A DNA stretch of 64,000 nt. It comes from an uncultured Halobacteria archaeon (GTDB lineage: Bacteria; Pseudomonadota; Gammaproteobacteria; UBA9214). Below the pieces are notes generated by a model that saw only the letters and a program-made list of their open reading frames with translations, was not told the DNA's origin and did no database searches. Numbering within the stretch: position 1 is the first letter of the stretch; the number at the start of each line of letters is the position of its first letter. Positions 2,172 to 49,103 of the stretch are shown piece by piece. The stretch spans positions 9,106 to 73,105 of the forward strand of contig CAVYIJ010000001.1 of the NCBI GenBank assembly GCA_963768575.1, written 5' to 3'. Both the position numbers and the translations under genes were made by a program.

Positions 2172-2492
2172 ATGCCGTATGTAATCAGAGATGCCGACGG
2201 GCGTATCGTCGGGCTTGCCGATCAATCTCCGGCCGGCCCTGCCGAGGAGATGACACTTTCCGATCCGGAGGTGCAGGCGTTTTTGCGTGCAGCCAGGGCG
2301 CAATTGTCATCCTCGGATGCAGAGACCATTCGTGTCATCGAAGACCTGGTTGACGTTTTGATACAGAAGAAACTCATCCTGCCGACCGACCTGCCGGTCG
2401 CTGCACAGCAAAAACTCTCGGAACGCCAGCGCATGCGCAGTGAACTCAATGTGCTGGATAATCTCATGGTCGGCGAAGACGACATACTCTAG
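2172..2492 (+). CDS. Hypothetical protein, 106 aa
   Basis: ATG at 2172 preceded by GGGGTTGGTG; protein-like composition; convergent with lapD. No family recognised. Confidence 0.45.
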   Translation: MPYVIRDADGRIVGLADQSPAGPAEEMTLSDPEVQAFLRAARAQLSSSDAETIRVIEDLVDVLIQKKLILPTDLPVAAQQKLSERQRMRSELNVLDNLMVGEDDIL

Positions 2493-2536
2493 CGGGCTGA
2501 TGAAAAAGACCGCTTGCGGAATGCGCCCGCGGCGCG

Positions 2537-4507: not shown

Positions 4508-4565
4508 TTATTATTCGTTTCCATGTGACAACGTATGCCGATCGTTGGTTGATTTTATAGTGATT

Positions 4566-5258: not shown

Positions 5259-5451
5259 AAACCATCCAGGCAGGTTTAACAGTGGTTCCCTGGCGGTTTA
5301 TCGGCATATAGGGCCGGTGCTTTGATAATTCGTAGCCGCTGGATAGTGCGCTACACTGGATAAGACAACCTTTACCAGTTGGTACCTAAGTCCAATTGCG
5401 GCACCTTCCGCAAGCCACTAGACTCTATAAAACATATAAAAACAAATAGTT

Positions 5452-5934
5452 ATGAAAAAAATCAGAATAACGCTAGTCTGCGCCGGCAAGGAGGACTACC
5501 CGGGTTGCGCGGACGTCCTGGCAACCTTCCACGAGTTCGAAATCATCGCCCGGCACCACAGCCTGACGACTGCCGGTATCTGGCGCGATCTGTCGAACAG
5601 TGATGTTGTCTTGCTGGATGAATCCGCGGTGATTCAGGATGGCAGCGACAGCGTGCGCGCGGTTCACGAAAGTTTTCCCTTTGCCAGAATCCTCCTGATT
5701 ATTGAAAAATCAAGCAAAAACAAGACAATAGAGGCATTATCCATGGGCATTACCGGGGTCATGGAGCGTGTCAACATGGTCGCCTCTATTCGCAAGGCAA
5801 TCCCTGTGCTGTACTCGGGCGAGACGTGGGTTTCGCGGGGATTGGTCGGTTCACTGCACAGCCAGCTTAAATATGCGGGCGATGACTCGCTGTTCCCGCA
5901 TGCCGCCGTGCGACCTCCGGACATAAAAAACTGA
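5452..5934 (+). CDS. Stand-alone atypical receiver (REC/CheY-like) domain protein
   Basis: 160 aa with a beta1-like KIRITLVCAGKEDY, a VVLLDES segment with an Asp at the phospho-acceptor position, and ILLIIEKSS. The upstream region 5380-5450 is AT-rich; the gene is on the same strand as and directly upstream of the adhesin gene. Confidence 0.5.
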   Translation: MKKIRITLVCAGKEDYPGCADVLATFHEFEIIARHHSLTTAGIWRDLSNSDVVLLDESAVIQDGSDSVRAVHESFPFARILLIIEKSSKNKTIEALSMGITGVMERVNMVASIRKAIPVLYSGETWVSRGLVGSLHSQLKYAGDDSLFPHAAVRPPDIKN

Positions 5935-6046
5935 GTCCTGCGTCGTACTTAAGTCCGATGGACTGCTTTTAAAGGGAATGTAATAGTTGAATCAGGCAGG
6001 CGCGCTCCCTGCCATTTCGATGGTCTCGAACAACAAGGACAACACC

Positions 6047-6700
6047 ATGGCAAGTACACAGATAGGTAGAGTAGAAACGGTTGATGGCAACCTCACCGTG
6101 ACGCAGGCGGGCGGCGCTGCGACACCCTTGCAAGAGGGTATGCCGGTCTACCTGAACGATGTCATCCTTGCCGATGGTAGTGCCCATGCACGTTTGCGCC
6201 TGAATGACGGTTCTGCGCTGGACATCAACCCCGGGCAAGTCATTACGCTGGACGCAAACATATTCGATGCTTCAGGTAGCTACGTACCTGTCACCGACGG
6301 CAGTGTCGCGGTCATCACTTTGAGCGGAATCGGTGTTGTCAGCCACGTGGAAGGCAAGGTGCAGGTTTTACGGGATGGTCAGCCGCGCGAGCTGGTGGTG
6401 GGCGATACCCTGTACCCGGGGGACATCATCCAGACCGGCACTGATGGCGCCGCGACCATTCGTTTGCCGGATGGCACTGACTCCGATATCGGACCGGGTA
6501 TTCAGGCCAGGCTGGGTGCCGGTCCGCTCCCGTCAAGTGAAAGTGATTTTCTCTCCAGCGGTATAGAGGATCCGGCCGAGATCCAGGCGGCGATCCTGGC
6601 AGGCCGTGACCCGTCACAGGACGCACCTGCCCCCGGTACCGGCGAGACGGCGGGCAACGAGGGACATACGCACATCCGCATTCTTCCTTCCGATCGGGCA
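6047..6700 (+). other. N-terminal retention module of the LapA-like adhesin, including the region homologous to the LapG processing site
   Basis: Sequence ...EIQAAILAGRDPSQDAPAPGTGETAGNEGHTH... aligns to Pseudomonas fluorescens LapA ...QQAIAAGADPTQDLEATAAGPSAGGGG... Confidence 0.6.
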
Positions 6701-9700
6701 GTCACTCCGGAAAGTGGACACGATACCCACGGGCAGTCACTGCCTATCCAGCCCCTTATCGAGGAACTGCTCCAGACCGAGGACTCCATACCCGTTATCG
6801 ACGTCACCTATGTAACCGGTGAACCGGGCGTGGTGGATGAAGCCGGCCTGCCGAATGGTTCGAGCAGCAACGACGGTTCCACCATCACAAGCGGTGCTTT
6901 CACGATCGACACGGGCAACGACAACATCGCCGGCCTGGAAGTACAGGACAAGGACGGTAACTGGATTGACGTAACAGCCGGCAACGTAATGGTGCAGGGC
7001 GTGAACGGAGTGCTGACGGTCACGGGCACTGGTGGTAACTACCAGTGGACGTATGAGCTGACGAACAACCTGACGACACATGCGGATAACGATACGCAGG
7101 ACGGCGACAGCGACCGGGGCACGGCAGACCAGGTGCCAGGCGAAGCGTTCGATGTGCGGGTTATTGATGATGACGGCGATATTTCCCCGCCGGCCACGAT
7201 TGATATCGTTGTCAACGATGACGGACCGACGGCGGTGGACGACACGAACGCGCTGGCCGAGGGGACGGTGGCGCCGGTGACGGGGGATGTGCTGCTCAAT
7301 GACACGACGGGAGCGGACGTACCGGCGGCGTTTGTGGACTGGGCGAGCACGGCGGCGAGCTACGGCACGTTTTCGGACACGGGCAACGGCAGCTACAGTT
7401 ATGTGCTGGACAACACCAATCCACTGGTGCAGGGGCTGGACGTTGGCGAGTCGCTGACGGAGACGTTTGATTACACCATGGTGGACGCGGACGGGGACAC
7501 CAGTCCGGCGACGCTGACGATCACCATCAACGGGGCCGATGACATTCCGACGATCGTGGTGGACCCGGGTAATCCGGGTGGCGCCAACGACCAGGTGTTC
7601 GAGGAAGCGCTGTCGCCGGACGGCAGCAACCCGGCCTCGAACGGCGAGTTTGCGACGGGCACGATCACGCTGGCGGATGCCGATGGTCTGGACGACCTGG
7701 TCTCGGTGACGATCAACGGCACCACGGTGGCGCTGGGCAGCCTGGCGGGTTCGGTCTTTGCGGGCACGAACGGCACGCTGACGGTGACGGCCTACGACGC
7801 GCTCACGGGAGTGGCCACGTACAGCTACGAGTTGACGGCGCCGGCCACGGATGTGGCGGGCATCGAGAGCGATGACTTTACGCTGACGGTGTCCGACGGC
7901 AGTACGGACTCGGCGCCGGTGAGCATCGTGATCGAGATTATCGATGATGTGCCGACGGCGGTGGACGACACGAACGCGCTGGCCGAGGGGACGGTGGCGC
8001 CGGTGACGGGGGATGTGCTGCTCAATGACACGACGGGAGCGGACGTACCGGCGGCGTTTGTGGACTGGGCGAGCACGGCGGCGAGCTACGGCACGTTTAC
8101 GGACACGGGCAACGGCAGCTACAGTTATGTGCTGGACAACACCGACCCGCTGGTGCAGGGGCTGGACGTTGGCGAGTCGCTGACGGAGACGTTTGATTAC
8201 ACCATGGTGGACGCGGACGGGGACACCAGTCCGGCGACGCTGACGATCACCATCAACGGGGCCGATGACATTCCGACGATCGTGGTGGACCCGGGTAATC
8301 CGGGTGGCGCCAACGACCAGGTGTTGGAGGAAGCGCTGTCGCCGGACGGCAGCAACCCGGCCTCGAACGGCGAGTTTGCGACGGGCACGTTCACGCTGGC
8401 GGATGCCGATGGTCTGGACGACCTGGTCTCGGTGACGATCAACGGCACCACGGTGGCGCTGGGCAGCCTGGCGGGTTCGGTCTTTGCGGGCACGAACGGC
8501 ACGCTGACGGTGACGGCCTACGATGCGCTCACGGGAGTGGCCACGTACAGCTACGAGCTGACGGCGCCGGCCACGGACGTGGCGGGCATCGAGAGCGATG
8601 ACTTTACGCTGACGGTGTCGGACGGCACCACGGACTCGGCGCCGGCGAGCATCGTGATCGAGATTATCGATGATGTGCCGACGGCGGTGGACGACACGAA
8701 CGCACTGGCCGAGGGGACGGTGGCGCCGGTGACGGGCGATGTGCTGGCCAATGACGTCAGCGGTGCGGACGTACCGGCGGCGTTTGTGAGCTTTGCGAGC
8801 ACGGCGGCGAGTTACGGCACGTTCACGGACACGGGCAACGGGACCTACAGTTACCTGCTGGACAACACCGACCCGCGGGTGCAGGGGCTGGACGTGGGCG
8901 AGTCGCTGACGGAGACGTTTGCTTACACCATGGTGGACGCGGACGGCGACACCAGTCCGGCGACGCTGACGATCACCATCAACGGGGCCGATGACATTCC
9001 GACGATCGTGGTGGACCCGGGCAATCCGGGTGGTGCCAACGACCAGGTGTTGGAGGAAGCGCTGTCGCCGGACGGCAGCAACCCGGCCTCGAACGGCGAG
9101 TTTGCGACGGGCACCTTTACGCTGGCGGATGCCGATGGTCTGGACGACCTGGTCTCGGTGACGATCAACGGCACCACGGTGGCGCTGGGCAGCCTGGCGG
9201 GTTCGGTCTTTGCGGGCACGAACGGCACGCTGACGGTGACGGCCTACGATGCGCTCACGGGAGTGGCCACGTACAGCTACGAGTTGACGGCGCCGGCCAC
9301 GGATGTGGCGGGCATCGAGAGTGATGACTTTACGCTGACGGTGTCCGACGGCAGTACGGACTCGGCGCCGGTGAGCATCGTGATCGAGATTATCGATGAT
9401 GTGCCGACGGTATCGGGCGCTAATCTCGGCGAATTCGATGAAGGCAGCGGGCCGCAAATAATCGGCCCGGTCGAGACGGTATTGAATATTACGCCGGGTG
9501 CCGACGGTCTGCAGAGCATTACCTTCACCAGCCTCAATTCACTCGGCGGGACACTCGAAGTCATCAATGGCCAGCTGGTGTATACACCCCCCGCGGATGT
9601 CGATAACGGGGATAGCGGCACCGATCTGCAGCTCGAAACCTTCCAGGTGACGGTGACTGACGGGGATGGCGATATCGCGGTATCGCAGGTGTCTGTCGAG

Positions 9701-11218
9701 GTTGTCAGCCCGGAACTCATTGTCGGCAGCAACAGCGATGATGACGGTCCGGACGACGGGATGGACCCGCATACGGTGAATACCACGCCGGCGGCCTCGG
9801 GTGCCATCGTCGGCACCGGTGGCGTGGATTTCCTGGCAGGTGATATTGGCGGTACTACCATCACGGCCACGAACGCCAACGTCATCCTGATACTCGATAC
9901 CTCGGGCAGCATGACCGCATCGATCAACTTTACCGACAGTAACGGCGTGACAACATCGATGTCCCGCATTGAAGCACAGAAGCTGGCGGTGAACAGCCTG
10001 CTGGGCGAGATGGCGGCAAGCGGTGCCAGCGAGGTGCGTGTGCACCTTGTTGAATTCAATACCGACGCTGCAAGTCTGGGTACCTTCGATCTCAAGAGCG
10101 GCGGCCTGCAGTCGGCAATCAATGCGGTCAATGCAACAACCGCCGGTGGATGGACCAACTACGAGGCGGCACTCCAGCAGGCGATAGACTGGTCCGCGGT
10201 GCCGGGCAACCTGTTGAGTGGCAGCAATACCGTCAATCAGGCCTTTTTTGTTTCCGATGGACAGCCGAACCGCTTCTTGCAGACTGATGGCACAGTCAGT
10301 CCCACCGTCTCGGCCGCAAGCGCCATGAGTCAGGTGTTGGGCACGGATACGTCCGGTTCCCAGCAGGACAACACCAACGAGGTCCTGATTCTTGAAGGCC
10401 AGTTCGGGCCCATCGAGGCGGTTGGTATTGCGCTCACCAGTCAGAGTGACATCAGTAACCTGGACCAGATCGAGGGCGAGGCCCGGGGTTCGGGTTCCGC
10501 GGATAACATATTCACGGCGAATGAGCTGATCACGACGCTGTCGGATCTCAATCCGTTGACACAGTTGACTGCGGCGGGTAACGACATTATCAATGGCGGC
10601 GACGGTGACGACATCATTTTCGGTGATTCAATGTTTACCGATGCGCTGGCAGTAAACCAGGGCCTGTCAACACCGGCCGGGTCAGGCTGGCAGGTTTTTG
10701 CCGACCTGGAAGCCACGCCGGGCTGGGGCCGTGAAGAAACTACCGATTACATTCGTGCCAACCACGCTGAACTGGCTGCGGAAGCGACACAGGGCCGCGG
10801 CGGCGGGGACGACATTATCGATGCCGGGGCCGGTAACGACATTGTCTACGGCCAGGAAGGCGACGATCGCATTTCCGGTGGTGCGGGCGATGACATCCTG
10901 TCCGGTGGCAGCGGTGCCGATACTTTCGTCTGGATAGCAAACGAGTCGGGTGCCGACGAGGTACTGGACTTCAATACCGGTGAAGGCGACGTGCTGGATA
11001 TTGCCTCCTTGCTGGTTGGCGAGAGCAATCCGACCGCGGCCGAACTGGACGGCACCTACATGAGTATTGCCTCGGGTGCTGACACGATCATCACCGTATT
11101 CGGCGATAGCGGCAATGCCGACCAGGTTATCCAGCTGACCGGATTCAATACGAGCGGTCTGGACAGCGTGCAGATCATCGAGAACCTGTTGACGAACGGC
11201 AATCTGGTAACGGACTGA
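6047..11218 (+). CDS. lapA: LapA-like giant RTX adhesin / biofilm-associated T1SS substrate (N-terminal retention module, Ig/cadherin-like extender repeats, VWA domain, RTX repeats, C-terminal secretion signal)
   Basis: The open frame runs 5987-11218, but AAGGA at 6034-6038 sits 8 nt before ATG 6047 (MASTQIGRVETVDG...), which matches the LapA-type N-terminus. The product has 3x242-aa repeats, a DTSGSM MIDAS motif, GGxGxD nonapeptide repeats (GGDGDDIIFGD, GGAGDDILSGGSGADTF), and an acidic C-terminal tail. Confidence 0.9.
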   Translation: MASTQIGRVETVDGNLTVTQAGGAATPLQEGMPVYLNDVILADGSAHARLRLNDGSALDINPGQVITLDANIFDASGSYVPVTDGSVAVITLSGIGVVSHVEGKVQVLRDGQPRELVVGDTLYPGDIIQTGTDGAATIRLPDGTDSDIGPGIQARLGAGPLPSSESDFLSSGIEDPAEIQAAILAGRDPSQDAPAPGTGETAGNEGHTHIRILPSDRAVTPESGHDTHGQSLPIQPLIEELLQTEDSIPVIDVTYVTGEPGVVDEAGLPNGSSSNDGSTITSGAFTIDTGNDNIAGLEVQDKDGNWIDVTAGNVMVQGVNGVLTVTGTGGNYQWTYELTNNLTTHADNDTQDGDSDRGTADQVPGEAFDVRVIDDDGDISPPATIDIVVNDDGPTAVDDTNALAEGTVAPVTGDVLLNDTTGADVPAAFVDWASTAASYGTFSDTGNGSYSYVLDNTNPLVQGLDVGESLTETFDYTMVDADGDTSPATLTITINGADDIPTIVVDPGNPGGANDQVFEEALSPDGSNPASNGEFATGTITLADADGLDDLVSVTINGTTVALGSLAGSVFAGTNGTLTVTAYDALTGVATYSYELTAPATDVAGIESDDFTLTVSDGSTDSAPVSIVIEIIDDVPTAVDDTNALAEGTVAPVTGDVLLNDTTGADVPAAFVDWASTAASYGTFTDTGNGSYSYVLDNTDPLVQGLDVGESLTETFDYTMVDADGDTSPATLTITINGADDIPTIVVDPGNPGGANDQVLEEALSPDGSNPASNGEFATGTFTLADADGLDDLVSVTINGTTVALGSLAGSVFAGTNGTLTVTAYDALTGVATYSYELTAPATDVAGIESDDFTLTVSDGTTDSAPASIVIEIIDDVPTAVDDTNALAEGTVAPVTGDVLANDVSGADVPAAFVSFASTAASYGTFTDTGNGTYSYLLDNTDPRVQGLDVGESLTETFAYTMVDADGDTSPATLTITINGADDIPTIVVDPGNPGGANDQVLEEALSPDGSNPASNGEFATGTFTLADADGLDDLVSVTINGTTVALGSLAGSVFAGTNGTLTVTAYDALTGVATYSYELTAPATDVAGIESDDFTLTVSDGSTDSAPVSIVIEIIDDVPTVSGANLGEFDEGSGPQIIGPVETVLNITPGADGLQSITFTSLNSLGGTLEVINGQLVYTPPADVDNGDSGTDLQLETFQVTVTDGDGDIAVSQVSVEVVSPELIVGSNSDDDGPDDGMDPHTVNTTPAASGAIVGTGGVDFLAGDIGGTTITATNANVILILDTSGSMTASINFTDSNGVTTSMSRIEAQKLAVNSLLGEMAASGASEVRVHLVEFNTDAASLGTFDLKSGGLQSAINAVNATTAGGWTNYEAALQQAIDWSAVPGNLLSGSNTVNQAFFVSDGQPNRFLQTDGTVSPTVSAASAMSQVLGTDTSGSQQDNTNEVLILEGQFGPIEAVGIALTSQSDISNLDQIEGEARGSGSADNIFTANELITTLSDLNPLTQLTAAGNDIINGGDGDDIIFGDSMFTDALAVNQGLSTPAGSGWQVFADLEATPGWGREETTDYIRANHAELAAEATQGRGGGDDIIDAGAGNDIVYGQEGDDRISGGAGDDILSGGSGADTFVWIANESGADEVLDFNTGEGDVLDIASLLVGESNPTAAELDGTYMSIASGADTIITVFGDSGNADQVIQLTGFNTSGLDSVQIIENLLTNGNLVTD
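7223..9400 (+). repeat. Three tandem near-identical 726-bp (242-aa) coding repeats inside the adhesin gene (7223-7948, 7949-8674, 8675-9400)
   Basis: The period is exactly 726 bp (the motif gtgccgacggcggtggacgacacgaac recurs at 7949 and 8675). Copies 1 and 2 differ at only a few codons; copy 3 is slightly more diverged. Each unit contains a VDDTNALAEG...GDVLLNDTTGAD cadherin/VCBS-like module. Confidence 0.9.
9875..10290 (+). other. von Willebrand factor A (VWA) domain of the adhesin
   Basis: ANVILILDTSGSM (MIDAS DxSxS) ... FFVSDGQPN. Confidence 0.7.
10590..10930 (+). other. RTX calcium-binding nonapeptide repeats followed by a C-terminal T1SS secretion signal (to 11218)
   Basis: GGDGDDIIFGD; GGGDDIIDAGAGNDIVYGQEGDDRISGGAGDDILSGGSGADTF. 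Confidence 0.75.
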
Positions 11219-11349
11219 CAAAACGCGGGGCAACGGTGGTCCGGGCCGCCGGGCTTACCGGCCCCGGACAGTATTTCGGGTAATACTCTTTCTCCGGGTG
11301 TGTAATAATCACGCCCTGTTCTCAGGGTGCCGGGGAAGGCAGTTAATCC

Positions 11350-24613: not shown

Positions 24614-25588
24614 ATGTTTGACAAGAACCAATCTGATGAAATTGCACGCGAGGGTGATGGCTGGCCTCGTGACGTTATGGAACGCCTGGTGTTTGCCGCC
24701 GTTACCGAGCAGCGGCGTGCCCGCCGCTGGAGTGTCTTCTTCAAGATCCTGCTGGCACTGTACCTGCTCGCCTTGCTGTTCCTGTACACGCCGCGCGACT
24801 GGTCCTCGATGACGAAGGCCGGCGAAAAGCACACGGCACTGGTGGAGCTGTCCGGCCCGATATCCGACGCCGCCGAGGCCGGTGCCGATACGGTCATCAG
24901 CGGTTTGCGCGATGCCTTCGATGACGAGAAAACGGCCGGCGTCATTCTGCGCGCCAACTCGCCCGGAGGCAGCCCGGTGCAGTCCGCCTATATCTATGAC
25001 GAAATTCGCCGCTTGCGCGAGTTGCACCCGGACACGAAATTGTATGCCGTGGTGACCGATATCTGCGCGTCCGGTTGCTACTATATCGTCTCGGCGGCTG
25101 ACGAGATTTATGTGAACAAGTCCAGTATCGTCGGCTCGATCGGCGTGCGCATGGACAGCTTCGGTTTTGTCGATACCATGGAAAAACTGGGTATCGAGCG
25201 GCGGCTGTACACGGCCGGCGAAAGCAAGGGTTTTCTTGACCCGTTCACGCCGAGCAAGGAATCTGACGTCGTGCATGTCAAACAACTGCTGGGCGATATC
25301 CATGAAAAATTCAAGAGCGATGTGATGGCAGGGCGCGGCGACCGACTCAAGGAACAGCCGCAATTGTTCTCCGGCCTGGTATGGGCCGGCAGCGAGGGCG
25401 TCGAGATGGGACTGGCCGATCATTTCGGCAGTTCCGGCTACGTCGCACGCGAGGTCATCGGCGCGGAAGAGATCGTCGACTTCACGCAGAAACCGGACCT
25501 GCTGGAACGCATCAGCGACCGCATCGGCGTGGCCATGGCGCGCGCGATGAGTGAACTGGTTCTGGAAGGTACGGGGACGGTTAAATAA
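24614..25588 (+). CDS. sppA: Signal peptide peptidase SppA (S49 family, 36K type)
   Basis: TDICASGCYYIVSAADEIYVNKSSIVGSIGV; alternative upstream start at 24575. Confidence 0.85.
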   Translation: MFDKNQSDEIAREGDGWPRDVMERLVFAAVTEQRRARRWSVFFKILLALYLLALLFLYTPRDWSSMTKAGEKHTALVELSGPISDAAEAGADTVISGLRDAFDDEKTAGVILRANSPGGSPVQSAYIYDEIRRLRELHPDTKLYAVVTDICASGCYYIVSAADEIYVNKSSIVGSIGVRMDSFGFVDTMEKLGIERRLYTAGESKGFLDPFTPSKESDVVHVKQLLGDIHEKFKSDVMAGRGDRLKEQPQLFSGLVWAGSEGVEMGLADHFGSSGYVAREVIGAEEIVDFTQKPDLLERISDRIGVAMARAMSELVLEGTGTVK

Positions 25589-25683
25589 TTTGCTTTGCAG
25601 GAGCGCCTTTGCCTGCATGGACGTAAGTACATCGCGTAGCGCAGGGATGCGTGTGAGCGATGCAGGCGCGATAAGATAAAAAA

Positions 25684-25779
25684 ATATCTCACGCAGAGGC
25701 GCAAAGGCGCAGAGAAAAGATATAAATAATTGCCACAGAGAACACAGAGAAATTAAATTGCCTGGGTTGAGTGATAACA
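25684..25779 (+). repeat. REP/MITE-like element, copy 1 (~100 bp)
   Basis: Core ATATCTCACGCAGAGGCGCAAAGGCGCAGAGAAAA...GCCACAGAGAACACAGAGAAAT..ATTGCCTGGGTTGAGTGATAAC; related copies at 27060-27165, 30112-30207, 30365-30470, 37432-37484 and 63375-63402. Confidence 0.8.
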
Positions 25780-25825
25780 TTTAAGCCCAGTCGCGCGCGT
25801 TAGCGCATCTGACTGGGGCGACTTG

Positions 25826-26113
25826 TTATGCTGCTGATATTTTCTTCACATTCAATTTGTCACGTTTCTTTTCGGCTTCCCATAGATCGTACTGTGACTG
25901 CTGGTTCAGCCAGCTTTCGGAAGAGGTACCGAAAGCTAAGGAGAGACGTACTGCCATCTCAGGACTAATTCCAGAACGGCCATTAAGGATCGACGATAAC
26001 GTCTTACGGGTTACGCCCAGCGCTTCGGCAGCCTCAGTAATACTCAGCCCTAAAGGCTCAATACATAGTTCCCGCAGAACTTCACCTGGATGTGGGGGAT
26101 TGTGCATCTTCAT
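25826..26113 (-). CDS. higA: HigA antitoxin (HTH_XRE addiction-module antidote)
   Basis: 95 aa, [24 protein letters not shown]; downstream of higB, spaced by 9 bp. Confidence 0.8.
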
Positions 26114-26122
26114 CAGTACACC

Positions 26123-26401
26123 TCAATGATAGTCTTCATAATCTACTGTTTCTGCATCTTTGCCCTTAAAACGGAATGTCACGCGCCAGTTACCGCTCAC
26201 CCAAACTGACCAAATACTTTTACGTTTTCCACCCAACTCATGCAAATTGAGACCTGGCAGATCCATATCCTTGGGATTTGTTGATGCATTTAAACGGCCC
26301 AATATTAACTTCAGCCGATTAGCGTGCTTGGCCTGAATTCCTGACTTGGTTCCTTTCAAAAAGAATCTTTCAAGACCTTTGTGCTTGAAACTCCTTATCA
26401 T
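26123..26401 (-). CDS. higB: HigB toxin (RelE/ParE superfamily, HigB-like killer protein)
   Basis: 92 aa MIRSFKHKGLERFF...WRVTFRF; toxin-upstream-of-antitoxin order typical of higBA. Confidence 0.8.
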   Translation of the reverse strand: MIRSFKHKGLERFFLKGTKSGIQAKHANRLKLILGRLNASTNPKDMDLPGLNLHELGGKRKSIWSVWVSGNWRVTFRFKGKDAETVDYEDYH

Positions 26402-26529
26402 AGGCAGTAAGTGTAACCTATAACGTTACGGGTTACAAGCTGATGATTGTAGCATAACGACTGAAGTGAGCCGCGCCTGCGAAGCAGGCGTCGGGCCCGC
26501 CTGGAAGGCGGGCGTACTCGACTGACTTG

Positions 26530-26847
26530 TTATGTGTTTTCAATGTCACTGTTAGCTCTTAAATCAAATACTGTTACTGCATTTTGCGGAGAATTATATG
26601 GAAACTCATATAACAAACCTGCTTCAATCCCTTTACAGAACCACGAGAAACGAACGCCTGGAGGTGAGATGTATCTATCATTTGTTTTCCAATACTCTTC
26701 AGATGCTTCAAAGTTTCCACAGACATAGTTATTGCAAGTTCGAGATGGCAATTCAACGTCATGAAAGCTGCAGAACTCTATACCCTCTCTGATCTTCTTA
26801 TAATTTGCGCAATAAACGCAATCTAGAGAACCTTTACCATTAGCCAT
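26530..26847 (-). CDS. Cys-rich small hypothetical protein (105 aa), encoded in an AT-rich segment
   Basis: Seven Cys (CVYC...CSFH...C..C...C); local GC is about 40% against about 62% genome background; lies inside the repeat-bounded higBA cassette. Confidence 0.45.
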   Translation of the reverse strand: MANGKGSLDCVYCANYKKIREGIEFCSFHDVELPSRTCNNYVCGNFEASEEYWKTNDRYISPPGVRFSWFCKGIEAGLLYEFPYNSPQNAVTVFDLRANSDIENT

Positions 26848-27059
26848 AGCAATATTTACACATAACTACTATTGGGCGAACGAATGCTCGTTTTGTAAAG
26901 GATATGCATTGACCATAACTATAATCGATGATCCATCAGTTCAACAGCTTAAAGCGATTAATGCGTGTTATGGAGACCTAAATTACACGCAATAGCGTAC
27001 ATTCAACAGCACAGTTATTCGGAAGGATACGGTAATGTTCCAACATTTGCTGTTCTCGA

Positions 27060-27165
27060 CACGCCTGGCAAATAATTGGGGTCAGAGCACAATTGTTCCT
27101 ATGTGTTCTCGGTAGCAATTATTTGATCTTTTCTCTGCGCCTTGGCGCCTCTGCGTGAGGCGATT
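27060..27165 (-). repeat. REP/MITE-like element, copy 2 (inverted relative to copy 1)
   Basis: Reverse complement reads ...CTCACGCAGAGGCGCCAAGGCGCAGAGAAAAGATCAAATAATTGCTACCGAGAACACATAGGAAC... Confidence 0.7.
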
Positions 27166-27174
27166 TTAAGGTTG

Positions 27175-28458
27175 TTATCCAGGCCGGCGGAATTGCCTCA
27201 GCCAGTTACCGAACTTCTCGGCCGGCATCGGTTTGGCGACTATGTAGCCCTGGACCTTGTCGCAGTCCAGTTTTCTCAATGCCGCAAGGGTATCCGGGTC
27301 CTCGGCGCCTTCCGCCACCACGGAAAGTCCGAACTTGTGCGCCAGGTCAATGATCAGGGCAACGATCTTGGCGTTGGCCTCGTCTTCCAGGAGGCCGGCT
27401 ACAAATGAACGGTCGATTTTCAGTTCATCCGCCGGGATGTCCCGGAAATAGGACAGGCTGGAATAGCCCGTACCGAAATCATCAATCGATATCCTGATAC
27501 CCTCGCTGCGCAGCTCTTTGAGTTTTGCGAAACAATTCTCTACGTCCTCCACGAAGTTTTGTTCCAGAACTTCCAGTGAAAGCGTTATATTTCCGTTGCC
27601 CCATAAACCGTCGGAACTGAGGACAAGGTCGACAAAGTCAGGCTGCTCGAGCAGTTTCGTGGGGATATTGACCGAAACATCCAGTGCGCCCCATTGTTCC
27701 GTCCATTCGTTGCTCAAGCGCAATGCACTATTAAGCATCCAGACCGTGATTGGTTTTATCAGCCCCAGTTCTTCAGCAACCGGCAGAAAGATGCCCGGGG
27801 CGAGCAGGCCGCGTGAGGGACTGTTCCAGCGAATCAATGCCTCTGCGCCGGTTGGCTTTCCGGTGGACAGTGATATTTTAGGCTGGAAGTAGACGCACAG
27901 TTCCGAATTATCAATTGCCCTGGCCAGCTCGATCTCTATATCCCAGTTGCCTGAAATAATTAACTCTTCGGGGGCATCTGCGATACTGAAGAACTCCTCG
28001 GTACGTTTTGACTTGTCCAGTGCAGCCTCGGCCTGCTTGAGCATGTCATTTGCCTCGGAACTGTGTACAGGGCACAGGGCAATGCCGACATGGGCGCTAC
28101 AGGCCAGTTTTCCGCTATCCAGCTCGACCGGGAGGTCGAGCAGCCGCTGTATCTTGAATGCGGCAAGAGTTGCATGACCTTCATTGACAATGCCGGATAG
28201 CAGCAGGGCAAATTCATTATCACCAATTCTGGCGATGTAATCCCCTTGCCGCTTGACCTTGCCCAGTATATCTGCAAATGAGCGCAGCACGCGGTCGCCG
28301 GCTTCATGGCCATACGTGCTGTTTATCCTGCGAAAGCGATCGATCTTGATGATGAATAACGCGATCATTATCGCGTGCTCGTTGGATTCCTTTACTTGCC
28401 CGCTAAGGATTTCCATGAACTGCTGGCGATCGGGTAACCCGGTAATGGTGTCGGTCAT
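27175..28458 (-). CDS. Degenerate-GGDEF / EAL protein (predicted c-di-GMP phosphodiesterase)
   Basis: 427 aa. The GGDEF position reads RIGDNEF (degenerate). The EAL domain has EALIRW, DDFGTGYSSL and the QGY motif intact. Confidence 0.85.
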   Translation of the reverse strand: MTDTITGLPDRQQFMEILSGQVKESNEHAIMIALFIIKIDRFRRINSTYGHEAGDRVLRSFADILGKVKRQGDYIARIGDNEFALLLSGIVNEGHATLAAFKIQRLLDLPVELDSGKLACSAHVGIALCPVHSSEANDMLKQAEAALDKSKRTEEFFSIADAPEELIISGNWDIEIELARAIDNSELCVYFQPKISLSTGKPTGAEALIRWNSPSRGLLAPGIFLPVAEELGLIKPITVWMLNSALRLSNEWTEQWGALDVSVNIPTKLLEQPDFVDLVLSSDGLWGNGNITLSLEVLEQNFVEDVENCFAKLKELRSEGIRISIDDFGTGYSSLSYFRDIPADELKIDRSFVAGLLEDEANAKIVALIIDLAHKFGLSVVAEGAEDPDTLAALRKLDCDKVQGYIVAKPMPAEKFGNWLRQFRRPG

Positions 28459-28485
28459 GATATCAACACAACGGATATCCGGGGA

Positions 28486-29907
28486 CTATAAAAACAGTTC
28501 GTTCATGTCTATGCCAAAGGCACCGACAGGCAGTCCGCGAGCCACTGTTATTTCCTCGCTCGTCATTGAAAGATCCATCGGCACGAACTGTGGCAGGGGT
28601 TCCTTGTTTTTATCCAGCAACAGGATGATCGATGGCCGCAGACGCCTGAGACCGTTGATCGCCACGACCGCGCCCACTTCACCGGTACTCAACTCGATCA
28701 GGGAGCCCGTAGGGTACAGGCCGATTGCCTGGATGAATTGCTCGATAAGTTCGGCCTGGTACTTTTCTCCGCGCAGGTTGTACAGTTCGGCAATGGCTTC
28801 GTGCGCAGACATCGGTTCGGCATCAATATAAACGCGTTTATTGTTCATCGCATCGTAACTGTCGACAATACCGGCGATTCTGCCAAACAGCGGTATTTCG
28901 TTATTTGACAGGCGCTGCGGATATCCGCTGCCGTCTGCACGCTCATGGTGGGTTGCCACCATTTGCATAACTTCTACCGGCAACGTTTCACCTGAGGAAT
29001 CTCTCGAGGTGTTGGCGAGGATTTTCACGCCGATGTCCACGTGCGAGCGCAATTGCTGCATTTCTTCCGGACTCAGCTGCCCGGTTTTAAGCAGCAATTC
29101 CCTGGGCAGCCTGGTCTTGCCAACATCCAGCAGCAACCCGCCGAGCGCAAGATTCTCGATCGCCGGTTTTTCCAGTCCCAGGTGCCGACCAAAGGTCGCA
29201 CACCATACGGAGGTGCTAAGGGACCTCGTATATGAATAATCATCTACCTCCCTGAGGCTGATGATCCACATCATCGCCGACGGGTTCCTGATGATGCTGT
29301 CCGTCATGTAGGTAATGCCCTTCTTCACGGCGGCCACATCCAGTACCCCGCCACGCTCGAGGTTGGACAGCATGTTGTTCAGGTCAACGCTGATATTCTT
29401 GTGAATGTCCTTTGCTGTATCCAGTTCATTGGTGAACTTCGTTTCAGTCGAGTAGTGCTGTTTCCTGAGATGACTGAAATCATCCTTTGTCTGGTTGTCT
29501 GCCGATGATTTTGTTTGTGCCCGGGCCCCGTTTTTGCGTGTGTAGTCCCGCGGAGCTTCCCTTAGAACCCAGAACCGTGGATCGGGTGACGAGCCTTTTT
29601 CTACATCGACGTAGACATAATTGCAGTACTTCCTCAATTTCTCGATGTCACTCGAAGTTTTTATCTGGATACCCTGCAGCATGAAGGGCGTCTTCAGCCA
29701 CGGACGGTCCAGGCGGGACACGTACATCCCGATTTCGAGACCTTCGATACTGGTTTTTATTTCTGTTTTCACTAAACAATCCCTGCTTGAAATTACTCGA
29801 TGACCTGTCAACGAAATAACAGTGACCCGGGCTCTTTTTACATCGCCTGATGTATCTCGTTGCCGTTGGCCAGGCACACCTGAAATAAATGCCTGGTCGA
29901 CCAGCAA
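28486..29907 (-). CDS. HD-GYP phosphodiesterase with N-terminal DUF3391-like domain
   Basis: HHERADGSGYP (HD...GYP) and N-terminal GMYVSRLDRPWLKTPF. The likely start is GTG 29772, which has AGGGA 7 nt upstream; the frame is open to 29907. Confidence 0.8.
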   Translation of the reverse strand: MLVDQAFISGVPGQRQRDTSGDVKRARVTVISLTGHRVISSRDCLVKTEIKTSIEGLEIGMYVSRLDRPWLKTPFMLQGIQIKTSSDIEKLRKYCNYVYVDVEKGSSPDPRFWVLREAPRDYTRKNGARAQTKSSADNQTKDDFSHLRKQHYSTETKFTNELDTAKDIHKNISVDLNNMLSNLERGGVLDVAAVKKGITYMTDSIIRNPSAMMWIISLREVDDYSYTRSLSTSVWCATFGRHLGLEKPAIENLALGGLLLDVGKTRLPRELLLKTGQLSPEEMQQLRSHVDIGVKILANTSRDSSGETLPVEVMQMVATHHERADGSGYPQRLSNNEIPLFGRIAGIVDSYDAMNNKRVYIDAEPMSAHEAIAELYNLRGEKYQAELIEQFIQAIGLYPTGSLIELSTGEVGAVVAINGLRRLRPSIILLLDKNKEPLPQFVPMDLSMTSEEITVARGLPVGAFGIDMNELFL

Positions 29908-30111
29908 ATAATCGGCTGATCAGGGAGTTACTTGAAAACCGGTATTGCAGGGGGCAGGGCACAGAACGGGCCGCCTTGAGCGTCATTCCGGCAGGCTGGC
30001 GGGCGATTTCAGCACACCCTGCATTGGTCGATGCCGCTACATTGATCTCCCCGAACTATCAGGGGCGCGGTTTGGAACATGCGGAAATATGTATATTAAA
30101 CAAAAAGATAA

Positions 30112-30207
30112 AAGAATATCACGCAGAGGCGCAAAGGCGCAGAGAAAATATAGCCACAGAGAACACAGAGAACACAGAGAAATAAGATTGCCTGGATTAA
30201 GTGTTAA
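30112..30207 (+). repeat. REP/MITE-like element, copy 3
   Basis: AATATCACGCAGAGGCGCAAAGGCGCAGAGAAAATATAGCCACAGAGAACACAGAGAACACAGAGAAATAAGATTGCCTGGATTAAGTGTTAAC. Confidence 0.8.
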
Positions 30208-30296
30208 CGGTTGAATTGAGCGGCGCGCGTCAACGCGTCCGGCCCCGAAGGAGAGTACTCGAATGATTTATTATGCCTTGAGGTCATCCTCCAACA

Positions 30297-30358
30297 TCTT
30301 CAAGGGGTCAGGTCTGAGCTTATTGTCGTGTGGCTCAAGTACTCTGACCCCTTGAAGG
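30297..30358. repeat. 14-bp perfect-stem hairpin between inverted repeat copies 3 and 4
   Basis: CTTCAAGGGGTCAG ...34 nt... CTGACCCCTTGAAG. Confidence 0.7.
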
Positions 30359-30364
30359 CAGTAT

Positions 30365-30470
30365 CTATGGCATATTTTATCTCTGTGTCCTCTGTGTTCT
30401 CTGTGGCAATTATTTTATGTTTTCTCTGCGCCTTGGCGTCTTTGCGCGAGGCGGTTTCAAGGCAAAACAA
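30365..30470 (-). repeat. REP/MITE-like element, copy 4 (inverted; with copy 3 forms a MITE-like inverted pair)
   Basis: Reverse complement: CGCGCAAAGACGCCAAGGCGCAGAGAAAACATAAAATAATTGCCACAGAGAACACAGAGGACACAGAGATAAAATATGCC. Confidence 0.75.
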
Positions 30471-31047
30471 CCCCCGCATTCCCCAGCATGGCCGTCAACC
30501 GGATCAGCGGCAGCCCGATCAGTGCCGTCGGGTCATCACCGATCATCTTTTCGAACAGCGTGATGCCGAGTCCCTCGGACTTGAAGCTGCCGGCGCAGTT
30601 ATAGGGCTGCTCTGCACGCAGGTAACGCTCGATCTGTTCGGCGGTCAAATCCCTGAACTGCACCGTGAAGATGACAACATCGACCTGCGCTTCATGGTGC
30701 CGTGTGTCCAGCAGGCAGAGTCCCGTGTAAAAGCTGACGCGGTTGCCGGACAGCCTTCCCAGTTGCGCGACGGCATTTTCATGGTTGCCGGGCTTGCCGA
30801 GTATTTCATCATCGACAGTGGCGACCTGGTCAGAGCCGATAATCAGGCCGGCGTGCGTGTTACCCACGGCACGCGCCTTGTGCTCGGCGAGACGCTCGAC
30901 CAGGCCGGCCGGTTTTTCGCCGGGCAGGGCGGTTTCATCGATATCGGGGCTGACCGTCGTGTAGTCAAGGCACAGCCGGTCGAGCAGTGCTTTTCGATAG
31001 GGTGAGGAAGAGGCCAGGATGATCGGCGGCGTGTCAACTCCCGGCAT
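30457..31047 (-). CDS. maf: Maf-like nucleoside triphosphate pyrophosphatase (YceF type)
   Basis: IILASSSPYRKALL...; 196 aa. Note it lies on the strand opposite the rluC-sppA block, unlike Pseudomonas. Confidence 0.8.
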   Translation of the reverse strand: MPGVDTPPIILASSSPYRKALLDRLCLDYTTVSPDIDETALPGEKPAGLVERLAEHKARAVGNTHAGLIIGSDQVATVDDEILGKPGNHENAVAQLGRLSGNRVSFYTGLCLLDTRHHEAQVDVVIFTVQFRDLTAEQIERYLRAEQPYNCAGSFKSEGLGITLFEKMIGDDPTALIGLPLIRLTAMLGNAGVVLP

Positions 31048-37261: not shown

Positions 37262-37489
37262 CCGCTCTACATAATAATTTTCCCTCCCCCCCGGGACGAC
37301 TACATGGATGTAGGAGGTAGAGTAACGCATGGAGCAGTTACCGAGAGGGACAGTGAGAGGAGATATAAACAGGCAGTTAGGATTTTTTGATCCCCTCTCC
37401 CCAACCCTCCCCCTGAGGGGGAGGGGGTTCAGGAATAATTGATTTTCTTGGCGCCCTTCGCGCCTTTGCGGTGAGAAAGAATATTTACC
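37262..37489. repeat. fabH-fabD intergenic insertion containing a perfect G/C hairpin (37405-37425 CCCTCCCCC-TGA-GGGGGAGGG) and a diverged REP/MITE core copy (37432-37484)
   Basis: fabH and fabD are normally adjacent. Here they are separated by 244 bp of palindromic/repeat DNA. Confidence 0.7.
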
Positions 37490-41175: not shown

Positions 41176-41243
41176 GTAGGAGCGCCTTGCAGGCGCGAAC
41201 AGATTCAGTACTGGATTCAATCGCGCCTGCAAGGCGCTCCTAC
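41176..41243. terminator. Long near-perfect palindrome downstream of fabF (23-bp stem; REP-like, likely terminator)
   Basis: GTAGGAGCGCCTTGCAGGCGCGA ...22 nt... TCGCGCCTGCAAGGCGCTCCTAC. Confidence 0.6.
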
Positions 41244-46266: not shown

Positions 46267-46623
46267 ATTGCCGCCGTATTCGTCCAGTACGCTACTGCCT
46301 GATGATGGCGTGTCTGCCTTGTGCGACTGCAGCGATGTGCCGGTCAGGGTGCCGAGCGCGAAGATCAGTACGGCCGCGGCAGCCCTGGCCGGGGAGCGTG
46401 CCCACCAGCCGTGATTCCAGCGTAACTGTTGGGGAACTGGCTGCTCGATCTCGCGATAGGCCAGGCGCAGGGAGTCCTTGATCTGCAGCAGTTCGCAAAC
46501 GCGGCAGGCCAGTTCGTCATCCTGGCGCACGGCTTCCATGATCTCGGTGCGTTCGGCGACGTCGATTTCGTCATCGACAAATGCCTGCAGTTGCTCGTCG
46601 GAATAGCTGTCGCGGGTGCTCAT
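46207..46623 (-). CDS. Membrane-anchored anti-sigma factor (N-terminal anti-sigma domain, one TM, short periplasmic tail as currently framed)
   Basis: EQLQAFVDDEIDVAERTEIMEAV...CRVCELL; TM AAAVLIFALGTLTG; start overlaps the upstream ECF sigma stop. Confidence 0.7.
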   Translation of the reverse strand: MSTRDSYSDEQLQAFVDDEIDVAERTEIMEAVRQDDELACRVCELLQIKDSLRLAYREIEQPVPQQLRWNHGWWARSPARAAAAVLIFALGTLTGTSLQSHKADTPSSGSSVLDEYGGNQAGTETGRHPYQQRRGTAP

Positions 46624-47192
46624 TTGATTCTCCGTAATTTGGCGCGTACCAGGTCATGGCGCGGATCGAATTCCGCCAGTGCTGTTTTCAGCGCCTTTCG
46701 GGCGCGACAGATGCGGCTCATGACTGTACCGATCGGTATATCGAGGATCTCGGCGATTTCCGCATAGGAAAAGCCGGCCAGGTCGACCAGCGTGATGACC
46801 TGGCGCTGACCGTCCGGCAGTTGTGCGATCATTTGCCGCACCCGGTCAACGATGTCCTGGCGTTCGTTGCCATCCTCTGTCCATGGCTGACTTTCCGCGG
46901 GCAGGTTATCGATGTCGGCCATGTTGCGGTTGCTGCGCAGGTGATCGTACCAGCAGTTTGCGAGAATGCGTGTCAGCCAGGACTTGATGGCCTTGGTATT
47001 GTGCAACTGCTTGGCATTACGCAACGCCTTGACCATCGTGTCCTGCACCAGGTCATCGGCCAGTGCCGGCTGGTGACACCAGGAATAGGCCAGCTGGTAC
47101 AGCATTTGACGTCGTTGTTCCAGCTCGTGGCGGATTAATCGTGTGTTTTTGAACATCAGCGCAGCCCGTGGTGAATTTAACAGTATAATCAT
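46620..47192 (-). CDS. ECF (RpoE-like) RNA polymerase sigma factor
   Basis: Region 2 LVQDTMVKALRN, region 4 SYAEIAEILDIPIGTVMSRICRAR; AAGGAAAG 7 nt before ATG 47192. Confidence 0.85.
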   Translation of the reverse strand: MIILLNSPRAALMFKNTRLIRHELEQRRQMLYQLAYSWCHQPALADDLVQDTMVKALRNAKQLHNTKAIKSWLTRILANCWYDHLRSNRNMADIDNLPAESQPWTEDGNERQDIVDRVRQMIAQLPDGQRQVITLVDLAGFSYAEIAEILDIPIGTVMSRICRARKALKTALAEFDPRHDLVRAKLRRIK

Positions 47193-48068: not shown

Positions 48069-48614
48069 TTACTTCACCAGATAAACAGGGTCTTTGCGGG
48101 CCGGTGCAACATTTGACTGGTTTTCCATCCGCGCCAGAAGGTGCTTGCGTGCCCGGTGCAAACGACTCATGACAGTACCTATCGGTATTTCAAGTGCCAT
48201 TGCAACTTCGCAGTAGGACATCTCCTCAAGGTTGACCAGCGAAATTACCTGTCGTTCAATGACCGGCAGTGTCGCAACGGCCTGGCGTACCCGCTTTACA
48301 ATATCCGACTGTTCACAGTCCTCGACCGGTCCCGTTGCCTCGCTGGGCAGTTGTTCATCCAGCTCCACATGGTTTTTCTTGCTGCGCAAATAACTGTTCC
48401 ACTGATTATTCAGGATACTGTACAACCATGCGAATAATCGTTTCTCATCCCGTAATTGGGCTCGTTTGGCAATGCCGGTGGACAGGGTTTCCTGCACCAG
48501 GTCATCGGCCAGCATCTCATCGCCGCACCAGGCGAGCGCCACCCGATACAAACGGTCGCGACTGTCCACGATCCGGCAAGTCAATGACTTCGCCGGACAA
48601 TAGGGTATTTTCAT
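48069..48614 (-). CDS. ECF sigma factor, paralog of 46620-47192
   Basis: AGGAGAG 6 nt before ATG 48614 (MKIPYCPAKSL...); region 4 SYCEVAMALEIPIGTVMSRLHRAR. Confidence 0.85.
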   Translation of the reverse strand: MKIPYCPAKSLTCRIVDSRDRLYRVALAWCGDEMLADDLVQETLSTGIAKRAQLRDEKRLFAWLYSILNNQWNSYLRSKKNHVELDEQLPSEATGPVEDCEQSDIVKRVRQAVATLPVIERQVISLVNLEEMSYCEVAMALEIPIGTVMSRLHRARKHLLARMENQSNVAPARKDPVYLVK

Positions 48615-49103
48615 GACGCTCTCCTGTAATAGATGCTGCAAGCAGCCTGTTTATTCGCTTTATCAATCATTATTGTATGGACTGTCTCAGTATAACCACT
48701 GTGAATGCGATAATCCTTGTATTTTGATGTTCGGTATTTGTTATTTGTTGATCATAATAAAAGTACTGGCCGAATTGCCTGTTTCCCGGCCGGATGGAGT
48801 CCGGGGACGGTTTAATGGCCTGTTTCCCGTCTGATGGTTACCACACAAATACCGGAACTCGCTGCTTTCCACGCGTAAAGAGCTACTTGGTTGGCGTTCG
48901 CTGTGGAGCATCATCACTAAAATCGAATATCCTTATGTGCTGAAATTTATTTCTTCATGGTCTGACAAAGACTGAGAAATAAATGAATAAGTACACGGTG
49001 AGTTACCTCTACAAGTATACGGCGCACTCCGCGTGGAGGGTTTCCGTGTATGGAAATGAATTTCGAAATTTATTATTCACAATAAAATTAGGGGTGAGAT
49101 CTC

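Follow-up and report, generated by a model that had tools for sequence, protein, structure and literature searches.

A palindromic element in full and empty form beside a separate c-di-GMP operon: a probable three-layer mosaic between sppA and maf of an uncultured gammaproteobacterium

Several classes of described element come close to the one reported here. The pdif (Xer) modules of Acinetobacter plasmids are small modules, often of higBA or brnTA, bounded by inverted short sites. Repetitive extragenic palindromic (REP) sequences and their composite forms (bacterial interspersed mosaic elements, BIMEs, and REP doublets forming hairpins, REPINs) are short, intergenic, hairpin-forming and multi-copy, lie often at gene 3′ ends, have a proposed role as terminators or messenger RNA stabilizers, and mark variable spacers that also hold toxin–antitoxin (TA) genes; a GTAG or CGTC head defines the large REP super-families (PMC3733652). 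Miniature inverted-repeat transposable elements (MITEs) and the captures that they bracket (integron mobilization units and Tn3-derived inverted-repeat miniature elements, TIMEs; PMC4133298) are non-autonomous, with terminal inverted repeats and no transposase. The 23S rRNA intervening sequences of Coxiella and Leptospira hold a small open reading frame (ORF) within terminal inverted repeats; their stem is about 28 bp, their occurrence sporadic and their GC content below that of the host, horizontal spread is suspected and the mechanism of mobility is unknown (PMC4990558). Here we analyse a 64-kb stretch of contig CAVYIJ010000001.1 (64,000 nt, hereafter the window) that carries, between the signal peptide peptidase gene sppA and maf, two copies of one nested palindromic element: E1 (25673–27171), which holds a higBA TA unit and a Cys-rich ORF in its centre, and E2 (30105–30456), which is empty. 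Between the two lies an operon for two cyclic di-GMP (c-di-GMP) proteins. We think it probable that the region is a three-layer mosaic, in which an older operon and two younger element copies have come together in a variable spacer between convergent sppA and maf.

The likeness to each described class is partial. Unlike REPs, the E arms have no GTAG or CGTC head and are built from tandem 8–9-mers behind a TCAC-type terminus. Assignment to REPs mobilized by REP-associated tyrosine transposases (RAYTs) was rejected on this missing tetranucleotide, and no RAYT gene was seen. Plasmids of a gammaproteobacterium (Thiodictyon) and a cyanobacterium (Nostoc) carry near-identical arms, and four further phyla have related octamer arms; the two arm types present here are nested, and the loop can hold 0.4–1.4 kb of genes. 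Full and empty versions with the same ends (E1 and E2) recall MITEs, but in MITE capture two complete copies flank the cargo, whereas the E1 cargo sits within one element, between its own two arms, with no clear target-site duplication and no cognate transposase identified, and the gene-bearing relatives that we found carry only GxxExxY or TA genes. The intervening sequences, likened here by description, lie inside rRNA helices, are excised by RNase III and encode an S23p-type ORF, whereas E1 lies in an mRNA spacer and carries TA genes. What the locus adds is the full and empty pair and its link to a widespread family of octamer arms that enclose TA or GxxExxY genes.

The original prediction had placed four repeat copies here, and all four lie within about 40 nt of where it put them: c1 at 25673–25809 (plus strand), c2 at 27097–27171 (minus), c3 at 30105–30239 (plus) and c4 at 30363–30462 (minus). 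A 29-nt core is matched three times with at most one mismatch (0 matches in 100 shuffles), the fourth copy being more diverged, and the 64 kb hold no other full copy. It had read the copies as four MITEs that partition the region; instead they pair, c1 with c2 and c3 with c4, as the arms of two palindromes with the same asymmetric ends. The left-specific and right-specific sequences of c3 and c4 recur in c1 and c2, which stand 1.3 kb apart, and the ends of E1 and E2 are homologous (left, 83% over 106 nt; right, 87% over 75 nt). E1 is the same element as E2, with cargo in its centre.

Both elements have terminal inverted repeats, as arm pairs in E1 and as a single hairpin in E2, and the arms run from a TCAC-type terminus through tandem octamers, first module A (CGCAGAGG type) and then module B (CACAGAGAA type). 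E1 is a long split palindrome with arm pairs of 34 nt (97% complementary) and 29 nt (86%). Its left end comprises AAGATAAAAAAATATC, module A (25690–25718, plus strand; CACGCAGAGG CGCAAAGG CGCAGAGA AAA, the minus strand of which scored as a small hairpin with a T run), module B (25734–25751, plus strand; two copies of CACAGAGAA) and a tail; its right arm (27097–27171, minus strand) comprises B′ (27097–27124), A′ (27129–27159) and a right-end sequence, GGCGATTTTAAGG, that reaches 27171. The tail (25752–25810, minus strand) is common to E1 and E2 (78% over 76 nt), forms a GC hairpin just after the higA stop codon on the minus strand (fold z = −2.8) and is not included in the higBA homology seen in other contexts. 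E2 folds over its 352 bp at −89.9 kcal/mol as DNA (z = −11.5). It consists of a left end AAGATAAAAGAATATC, module A (30120–30148; CGCAGAGG CGCAAAGG CGCAGAGA), module B (30155–30181; three copies of CACAGAGAA), a tail of about 60 nt that ends near 30240, a central hairpin (30298–30357, 22-bp stem, z = −6.2), B′ (30380–30407) and A′ (30420–30450). The hairpin that had been predicted between the third and fourth copies is real.

An A–spacer–B junction pattern found no copy outside this locus in viral contigs and relatives' loci, and blastn of E1 and E2 against 2 Mb of loci returned only module A, plus module B in locus L013. An Rfam scan of 24–32 kb (E ≤ 1) gave no family, an ORF reading through the right arm of E2 gave one spurious match only when run with phmmer against 1.8 billion representative proteins, and no transposase or integrase family was present among the window ORFs scanned (for integrases, those of at least 180 aa). 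A looser pattern located a solitary, diverged A′-type arm between fabH and fabD (37444–37476, minus strand), which places the arm family elsewhere in this genome. Beside it, within 37385–37476, lies a CCCTC/GAGGG-type palindrome of a type seen also in the sppA–maf spacer of L008. After fabF (41176–41243), a perfect-centred GTAG-type palindrome (GTAGGAGCGCCTTGCAGGCGCGAA...; 34-nt arms, 85% complementary) represents a different, REP-like family in the same genome. A short imperfect hairpin directly 3′ of the sppA stop codon (25597–25616) resembles one arm of that palindrome; as its fold is weak (z = −0.9), we class it as a candidate terminator or REP remnant.

The spacer is anchored on the left by sppA (24614–25588, plus strand; S49 family, PF01343, 88 bits), whose 324-aa product is identical to a Joint Genome Institute (JGI) gene call in contig L002, and on the right by maf (30457–31047, minus strand; PF02545, 179 bits). 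The original prediction set the locus in a Pseudomonas frame and took maf to be inverted. The nearest SppA relatives come from metagenome-assembled genomes (MAGs) of uncultured Gammaproteobacteria (71–80% identity), with pseudomonads at 52–55%, and sppA and maf lie on opposite strands in every locus that holds both, including Pseudomonas, Stutzerimonas and Halopseudomonas. Maf is not inverted, because it stands to sppA here as it does in all relatives; convergence is the normal arrangement. The extra DNA between the two genes is borne out: in ten close loci (L003–L010, L012 and L013) they face one another directly across 70–355 bp, with pycB and then pycA beyond maf, as in the window. A single insertion of 4.9 kb is not, in that about 2.8 kb of it (the c-di-GMP operon and its upstream region) also occupies the site in two further relatives, L206 and L207, without repeats.

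Both elements begin at stop codons. Maf ends in ...VLP-stop, and its LP and stop codon are conserved in six relatives, so these bases are native and E2 begins at the stop codon, which it abuts exactly. The boundary of E1 lies 3 nt from the stop codon of the EAL gene, and the sequence TAACA.CCTT after that stop is common to the window and L229; it too is therefore native, and E1 begins just beyond it. Both right-end junctions read CCTT-R-A followed across the boundary by AA-Y-CGCC, a likeness that may reflect a site preference.

Different palindromic elements occupy the same spacer in L004, L006, L007, L008 and L013. L003 and L004 have core proteins that are 95% identical, yet their spacers differ: L004 carries a palindromic element of about 200 bp and CGTCATTGCGAG type (10990–11245) where L003 has 37 unrelated bases, which directly shows quick turnover at this site. 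In two more distant gammaproteobacterial MAGs, the spacer holds a gene for a 401-aa EAL and HDOD protein (L052, 11030–12232; L080, 11037–12239; GC 0.44–0.45), so that c-di-GMP genes recur here in unrelated forms. The L003 record (CAWKAE010000011.1) is titled 'uncultured Halobacteria archaeon', yet its locus is gammaproteobacterial (rne-rluC-HAD-sppA-maf-pycBA, 78–91% identical to the window); the MAG is probably mislabelled or mis-binned, and L229 ('Desulforhopalus sp.') may have a similar labelling problem.

The five genes that had been predicted between the anchors (HigA, HigB, a Cys-rich ORF, GGDEF-EAL and DUF3391-HD_5) are all present as described, and the predicted fall in GC content to about 40% around 26.1–27.1 kb measures 0.38–0.45 over 26.05–27.1 kb, against about 0.60 in the flanks. 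The higBA unit (25811–26457, minus strand) comprises higA (26113 down to 25826; TIGR02607, 113.5 bits against a cut-off of 47.7), higB (26401 down to 26123; PF05015, 71.8 bits) and an operator palindrome (26412–26438). Gene order (higB upstream of higA), the 9-nt gap and the palindromic operator are those of type II HigBA systems; the genes are ordinary and only their packaging differs. The unit is 78–81% identical in nucleotides over about 630 bp to higBA in unrelated contexts (L211–L228), a homology that reaches from the element tail to a point about 55 nt upstream of higB. The window and these contexts have the operator in common, TTGTAACC.GTAACG..A..GGTTAC, which L211 and L221 conserve. 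Homologues of HigB from other metagenomes (P0125) reach 90% identity, more than any core protein shows to the nearest relative, and plasmids and TA islands hold close HigBA homologues. A different repeat, of the GTAG type, brackets this higBA in L211. L221 holds an island of small genes (400–5400) with yefM-yoeB, higBA, brnTA and a GxxExxY gene interleaved with arms like modules A and B; there, a palindrome with 36-nt arms encloses a 74-aa ORF, and the sequence downstream of higA resembles the left end of E followed by module B (AAGATAAAAAC...CCACGGAATCCACGG...AAATTAAAT).

The Cys-rich ORF (26530–26847, minus strand; 105 aa), with an AT-rich region of 228 nt upstream (26848–27075), is a second cargo unit separate from higBA. 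It matches no Pfam, NCBIfam or PADLOC family (PADLOC gave no defence-system match except weak HTH hits), and an AlphaFold2 model built with its 3 homologues was too poor for a fold search (predicted local distance difference test score 55). Those three are the only homologues found; one lies beside a PIN-type TA pair (L210) and another is flanked by octamer palindromes (L209). GC content at third codon positions (GC3) is 0.46 in higA, 0.41 in higB and 0.31 in the Cys-rich ORF, compared with 0.71–0.77 in core genes. This range of 0.31–0.46 marks both units as recent arrivals, and by composition the block enclosed by the inverted arms appears foreign.

The c-di-GMP operon has a different history. 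It runs on the minus strand from a conserved upstream region (29773–29965; ...TGCAAT.CCGG..CAAGTAAC..CTGATYAGCCGA...) through a DUF3391 protein of the HD-GYP type (28486–29772) to a GGDEF-EAL protein (27175–28458). About 190 nt upstream of the HD-GYP gene can be aligned in the window, L206 and L229, and the unit therefore carries its own upstream region. In L206, a contig of 245 kb, the order is pycA-pycB-maf-HDGYP-EAL-sppA(−)-HAD-rluC-rne, and neither of the two junctions contains inverted repeats; in L207 it is HDGYP-EAL-two small ORFs-sppA-HAD-rluC-rne, with no octamer-type arms downstream of EAL, an examination limited to that side by a contig that holds only 76 nt upstream of HD-GYP. The pair is 72–77% identical to its counterparts in L206 and L207, compared with 69–84% for the flanking core genes. 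The pair has a GC3 of 0.63–0.65 here and 0.64–0.66 in L206, against core values of 0.71–0.77 in both; by this measure it appears largely ameliorated, with the same offset in both lineages. In a tree of core proteins (1271 columns), the window groups with L003 and L004 (100%) and L206 with L207 (100%).

The sequences themselves establish the anatomy of the elements, their insertion relative to related loci at the 3′ ends of maf and of the EAL gene, the foreign composition of the cargo in one of them, and the return of this arm type around ParE-family TA pairs and GxxExxY genes elsewhere. From these we propose the following origin. The first and oldest layer would be the self-contained operon at about 27168–29965 (upstream region, HD-GYP-type gene and EAL gene), independent of the repeats and either already in place in the ancestor common to the window and the L206/L207 lineage or the result of an old exchange between these relatives. 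The second and third, both young, would be the two copies of the non-autonomous element: E2 as an empty 352-bp hairpin inserted exactly after the maf stop codon, and E1, with the same asymmetric ends and two horizontally acquired units in its centre, inserted 3 nt after the EAL stop codon. HigBA would act as a self-stabilizing addiction module. Cargo would enter or spread through the arms, by double crossover between arm-bearing DNAs or by a nuclease encoded elsewhere, for which GxxExxY is the obvious candidate acting in trans.

Once in place, the elements may also serve their neighbours. The minus strand is the coding strand of all genes from pycA to higA, and at the left end of both elements it gives a hairpin and then a U-rich run; for E2 the minus-strand RNA folds at −162.6 kcal/mol (z = −13.0) and is followed by AUAUUCUUUUAUCUUUUUGUUU. 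A long hairpin with a U-rich run on minus-strand transcripts suggests a role as terminator or 3′-end stabilizer. On this pattern, E2 probably terminates or stabilizes the pycAB-maf transcript ahead of the HD-GYP promoter region and would insulate pycAB-maf from the HD-GYP/EAL promoter, and the left end of E1 would insulate higBA from convergent sppA.

The arms of E1 and E2 belong to a wider set. The 19-nt core of module A is present on at least 120 metagenome contigs, mostly as arm, loop of 4–142 nt and arm, with outer flanks that are A-rich on the 5′ side (0.41) and T-rich on the 3′ side (0.40) against backgrounds of 0.24 and 0.23, so that the hairpin-and-run pattern of a putative bidirectional terminator recurs in the family at large; the core is found also on plasmids of Ca. 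Thiodictyon and Nostoc. Arm pairs that stand 0.4–1.4 kb apart almost always enclose a TA pair or a GxxExxY/PDDEXK_3 gene. In a distant relative (L018, SppA 54% identical), the same architecture recurs at the same gene: a split palindrome (4659–5446; 45-nt arms, 87% complementary) begins 8 nt after the sppA stop codon and holds a ParE-family toxin and an 86-aa ORF. Split arms enclose a ParE-family toxin and a ribbon-helix-helix (RHH) protein in L153, and a GxxExxY/PDDEXK_3 gene in L130, L161, L204 and L221. Of five annotated GxxExxY genes on replicons of cultured organisms, four lie between arms of this design, in Sphingomonas (L233, 1144–1580), Bernardetia (L234, 1163–1613), Gemmatirosa (L235, 1003–1677) and Bacteroides (L236, 731–1202); a Prevotella copy (L237) has no such arms. 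In three of these the element is wedged between housekeeping genes (fabD and fabG in Sphingomonas, ade and a mannose-1-phosphate guanylyltransferase gene in Bernardetia, radA and an FAD protein gene in Bacteroides), the Gemmatirosa record being unannotated.

Compared with the arms of L018, L130, L153, L161, L204, L221 and L233–L236, a group defined here and without an established name, the window arms fit a common scheme: they begin with (T)TCAC or TCGC, and this TCAC-type terminus leads into two to four tandem octamers C(A/G)C(A/G)(A/G)AG(A/G), in inverted pairs. No match to three GxxExxY proteins was found in the window by tblastn; like L018 and L153, E1 has TA genes in that position. Short GxxExxY remnants adjoin some palindromes. 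A tandem array in L099 (12604–13320) consists of seven units of about 92–158 bp, each with a module-A core next to a GACCCTTCGTTCCTCAGGGTGACAAACGG motif. Literature text searches with the repeat sequences and with GxxExxY, PF13366 and TIGR04256 returned no description of such elements, an absence that is no proof of novelty, and no functional study of the GxxExxY family, which to our knowledge is uncharacterized.

We hold a broader interpretation only tentatively, as one that may well prove wrong. E1 and E2 might represent a widespread class of small selfish elements with a TCAC terminus and CGCAGAGG- or CACAGAGA-type arms, whose gene-bearing forms encode a GxxExxY nuclease of the PD-(D/E)XK type and whose abundant short palindromes are gene-less derivatives. 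The nuclease, or double crossover by way of the conserved arms, would move loop contents into empty palindromes. TA cassettes, such as HigBA here and the ParE-family pairs of L018 and L153, would serve as an alternative cargo that keeps a copy in place.

Several observations weigh against the mosaic and its proposed mechanism. No target-site duplication is unambiguous: CTT/AAG stands on either side of both elements, yet to count it as a duplication would cost maf its conserved stop codon. Searches of the 64 kb, of viral contigs and of 1.4 Mb from the loci of relatives gave no further full copy of E, so the mobility of E is deduced from two copies only. The terminator function is read from pattern, and the stems are far longer than those of canonical terminators. 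Ordinary module-A palindromes have diverse housekeeping genes as neighbours (173 Pfam families in 148 ORFs), on which an enrichment of particular gene families was rejected; a bias towards convergent gene pairs was not significant (15 versus 8), and most module-A copies behave like plain REP-type intergenic repeats. As for the operon, the deeper branching of the core-protein tree has 59% bootstrap support, and the nearest sisters, L003 and L004 (86% core identity), are without the HD-GYP/EAL pair, so that ancestral presence requires a loss and is just as parsimonious as two gains. The EAL homologue nearest to that of the window (L229, 80%) and those of L208 and L230 lie in different contexts; with three such settings, the pair evidently relocates as a unit.

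The account that competes best concerns E1. It may be no vehicle at all: an E2-like palindrome could have settled after the EAL gene first, with higBA and the Cys-rich ORF dropping successively into its centre, the loops serving as landing pads as REPs do for some insertion sequences. We consider this possible, if doubtful. The cargo units do have separate origins (of the two, only higBA is shared with L211–L228, and the Cys-rich ORF travels apart from it in L209 and L210), the tail beside higA belongs to the element and not to higBA, the weak matches of the E2 interior to E1 are collinear, and the GTAG-type repeats around higBA in L211 show the same genes in another frame. Yet no relative supplies an empty E copy at the EAL stop codon, and we know of no insertion mechanism for TA cassettes that lack a recombinase. 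This order of events is a variant of the mosaic rather than a contradiction of it.

The age of the first layer is contested by a second alternative, somewhat less probable than the last: the operon could have reached a hot-spot spacer independently in the window and L206/L207 lineages, as an insertion that was not repeat-mediated. Its absence from L003 and L004 fits such a history, as do its presence in at least four contexts, the lack of synteny with its closest homologue in L229 and the high variability of the spacer (palindromes in L004, L006, L007, L008 and L013; EAL-HDOD genes in L052 and L080). Set against these are the position, orientation and upstream block, all the same in both lineages, and a divergence that equals that of the core genes.

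The original prediction went further and took the whole 4.9 kb as one insertion, in which MITE copies captured both the TA cassette and the c-di-GMP pair. The pair does have an arm at either end (c2 directly at the EAL stop codon, c3 330 nt upstream of HD-GYP), and L003, the closest sister, is without the whole block. However, the pair has this site and this orientation in L206 and L207 as well, without repeat boundaries, which for this part of the insertion is the refuting outcome that the prediction had itself named; the pair diverges like core genes and is nearly host-like in GC3, and c2 and c3 are half-elements partnered by c1 and c4. Capture of the pair is thus largely refuted and, as a single event, very unlikely; what survives of the idea is the element-like nature of the repeats and the foreign, apparently recent higBA/Cys block within inverted arms. 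Misassembly is more improbable still. The window appears to be a metagenome-derived contig and repeats are classic points of chimeric joining, but two separately recorded JGI contigs (L001 and L002) have the identical sequence across sppA-E1-EAL and HDGYP-E2-maf, and their breaks fall within the HD-GYP gene; spanning both junctions and breaking away from the repeats, they argue against an artefact. Least credible of all is a Xer-dependent (pdif-type) module or an integron cassette, for although TA genes between short inverted sites are a pdif hallmark and chromosomal integrons commonly hold TA cassettes, the 30–75-nt arms here consist of repeated octamers and contain no dif-like sites (the best 11-6-11 site matches 15 of 22 arm positions, against 13–17 in shuffles), and the copies alternate +,−,+,− where attC sites would share one orientation, with no integrase family (intI) in the ORFs of at least 180 aa scanned. 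An integrase-like look of the 5′ flank of L229 was unsupported by Pfam and dropped.

The products of the operon differ in how well they match the two phosphodiesterases that had been predicted. The GGDEF-EAL protein (427 aa; PF00563, 221 bits; PF00990, 114 bits) appears active. EAL phosphodiesterases share the catalytic motifs EALxR, N, ExxE, DDFG(T/A)GYSS, KxD, EGxE and QG, and all were located here (EALIR, SVNIP, EVLE, DDFGTGYSS, KID, EGAE and QG), with a degenerate GGDEF domain (GDNEF). Its orthologues are numerous, 69–80% identical and all of 427 aa, and a deposited variant of the window protein differs by about 1%. The DUF3391 protein (428 aa, assigned by Pfam, with a probable GTG start at 29772) is another matter: the His of the HD dyad is replaced by Leu (LLLDVGK opposite LLHDIGK of PA4781, 4r8z, and PMHDIGK of PmGH, 4mcw), a change invariant in all five orthologues, and HHERADGSGYP is kept at residues 275–285. 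Across the group (window, L206, L207, L208 and L229), GGLLLD(V/I)GK stands in place of HD and Y(S/T)RSL at the position of the first His of HD-GYP, and HHERADGSG(Y/F)P is retained. Judged by these residues, calling it a phosphodiesterase is unsafe; this conserved 'LD-GYP' subfamily may bind c-di-GMP rather than hydrolyse it.

The same caution applies to the suggestion that the pair lies next to the Lap adhesin machinery and feeds LapD. LapD (LapD_MoxY_N, GGDEF and EAL), LapG (Peptidase_C93) and an RTX adhesin are present in the window (2537–11218), but between the end of LapD, at 4507, and the EAL gene lie more than 22 kb with unrelated housekeeping genes. The proposed link rests solely on co-occurrence within the 64 kb, and of the two supposed phosphodiesterases one has lost a metal-binding residue; nothing beyond a shared messenger connects the pair and Lap. 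The idea that the repeats wire a c-di-GMP-degrading pair into the Lap circuit does not hold, and there is no regulatory story to build on it. The adhesin itself has 1743 aa, is RTX/VWA/cadherin-like and contains three tandem repeats of 726 bp (7188–8939). Elsewhere in the window, two paralogous sigma factors of the extracytoplasmic function (ECF) type, each of 190 aa, lie about 0.9 kb apart (46620–47192 and 48069–48641), and each is followed by ORFs without a Pfam family.

The locus itself is an ordinary mosaic islet. What it leaves of use is one palindromic element in a clean full and empty version, each with a junction at a stop codon and with an arm type that also encloses TA pairs and GxxExxY genes in Alphaproteobacteria and Gammaproteobacteria, Bacteroidota and Gemmatimonadota. 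If that pattern reflects a mechanism of mobility, it would explain how a common class of intergenic palindromes arose, what the GxxExxY family does and one route by which TA cassettes without a recombinase spread.

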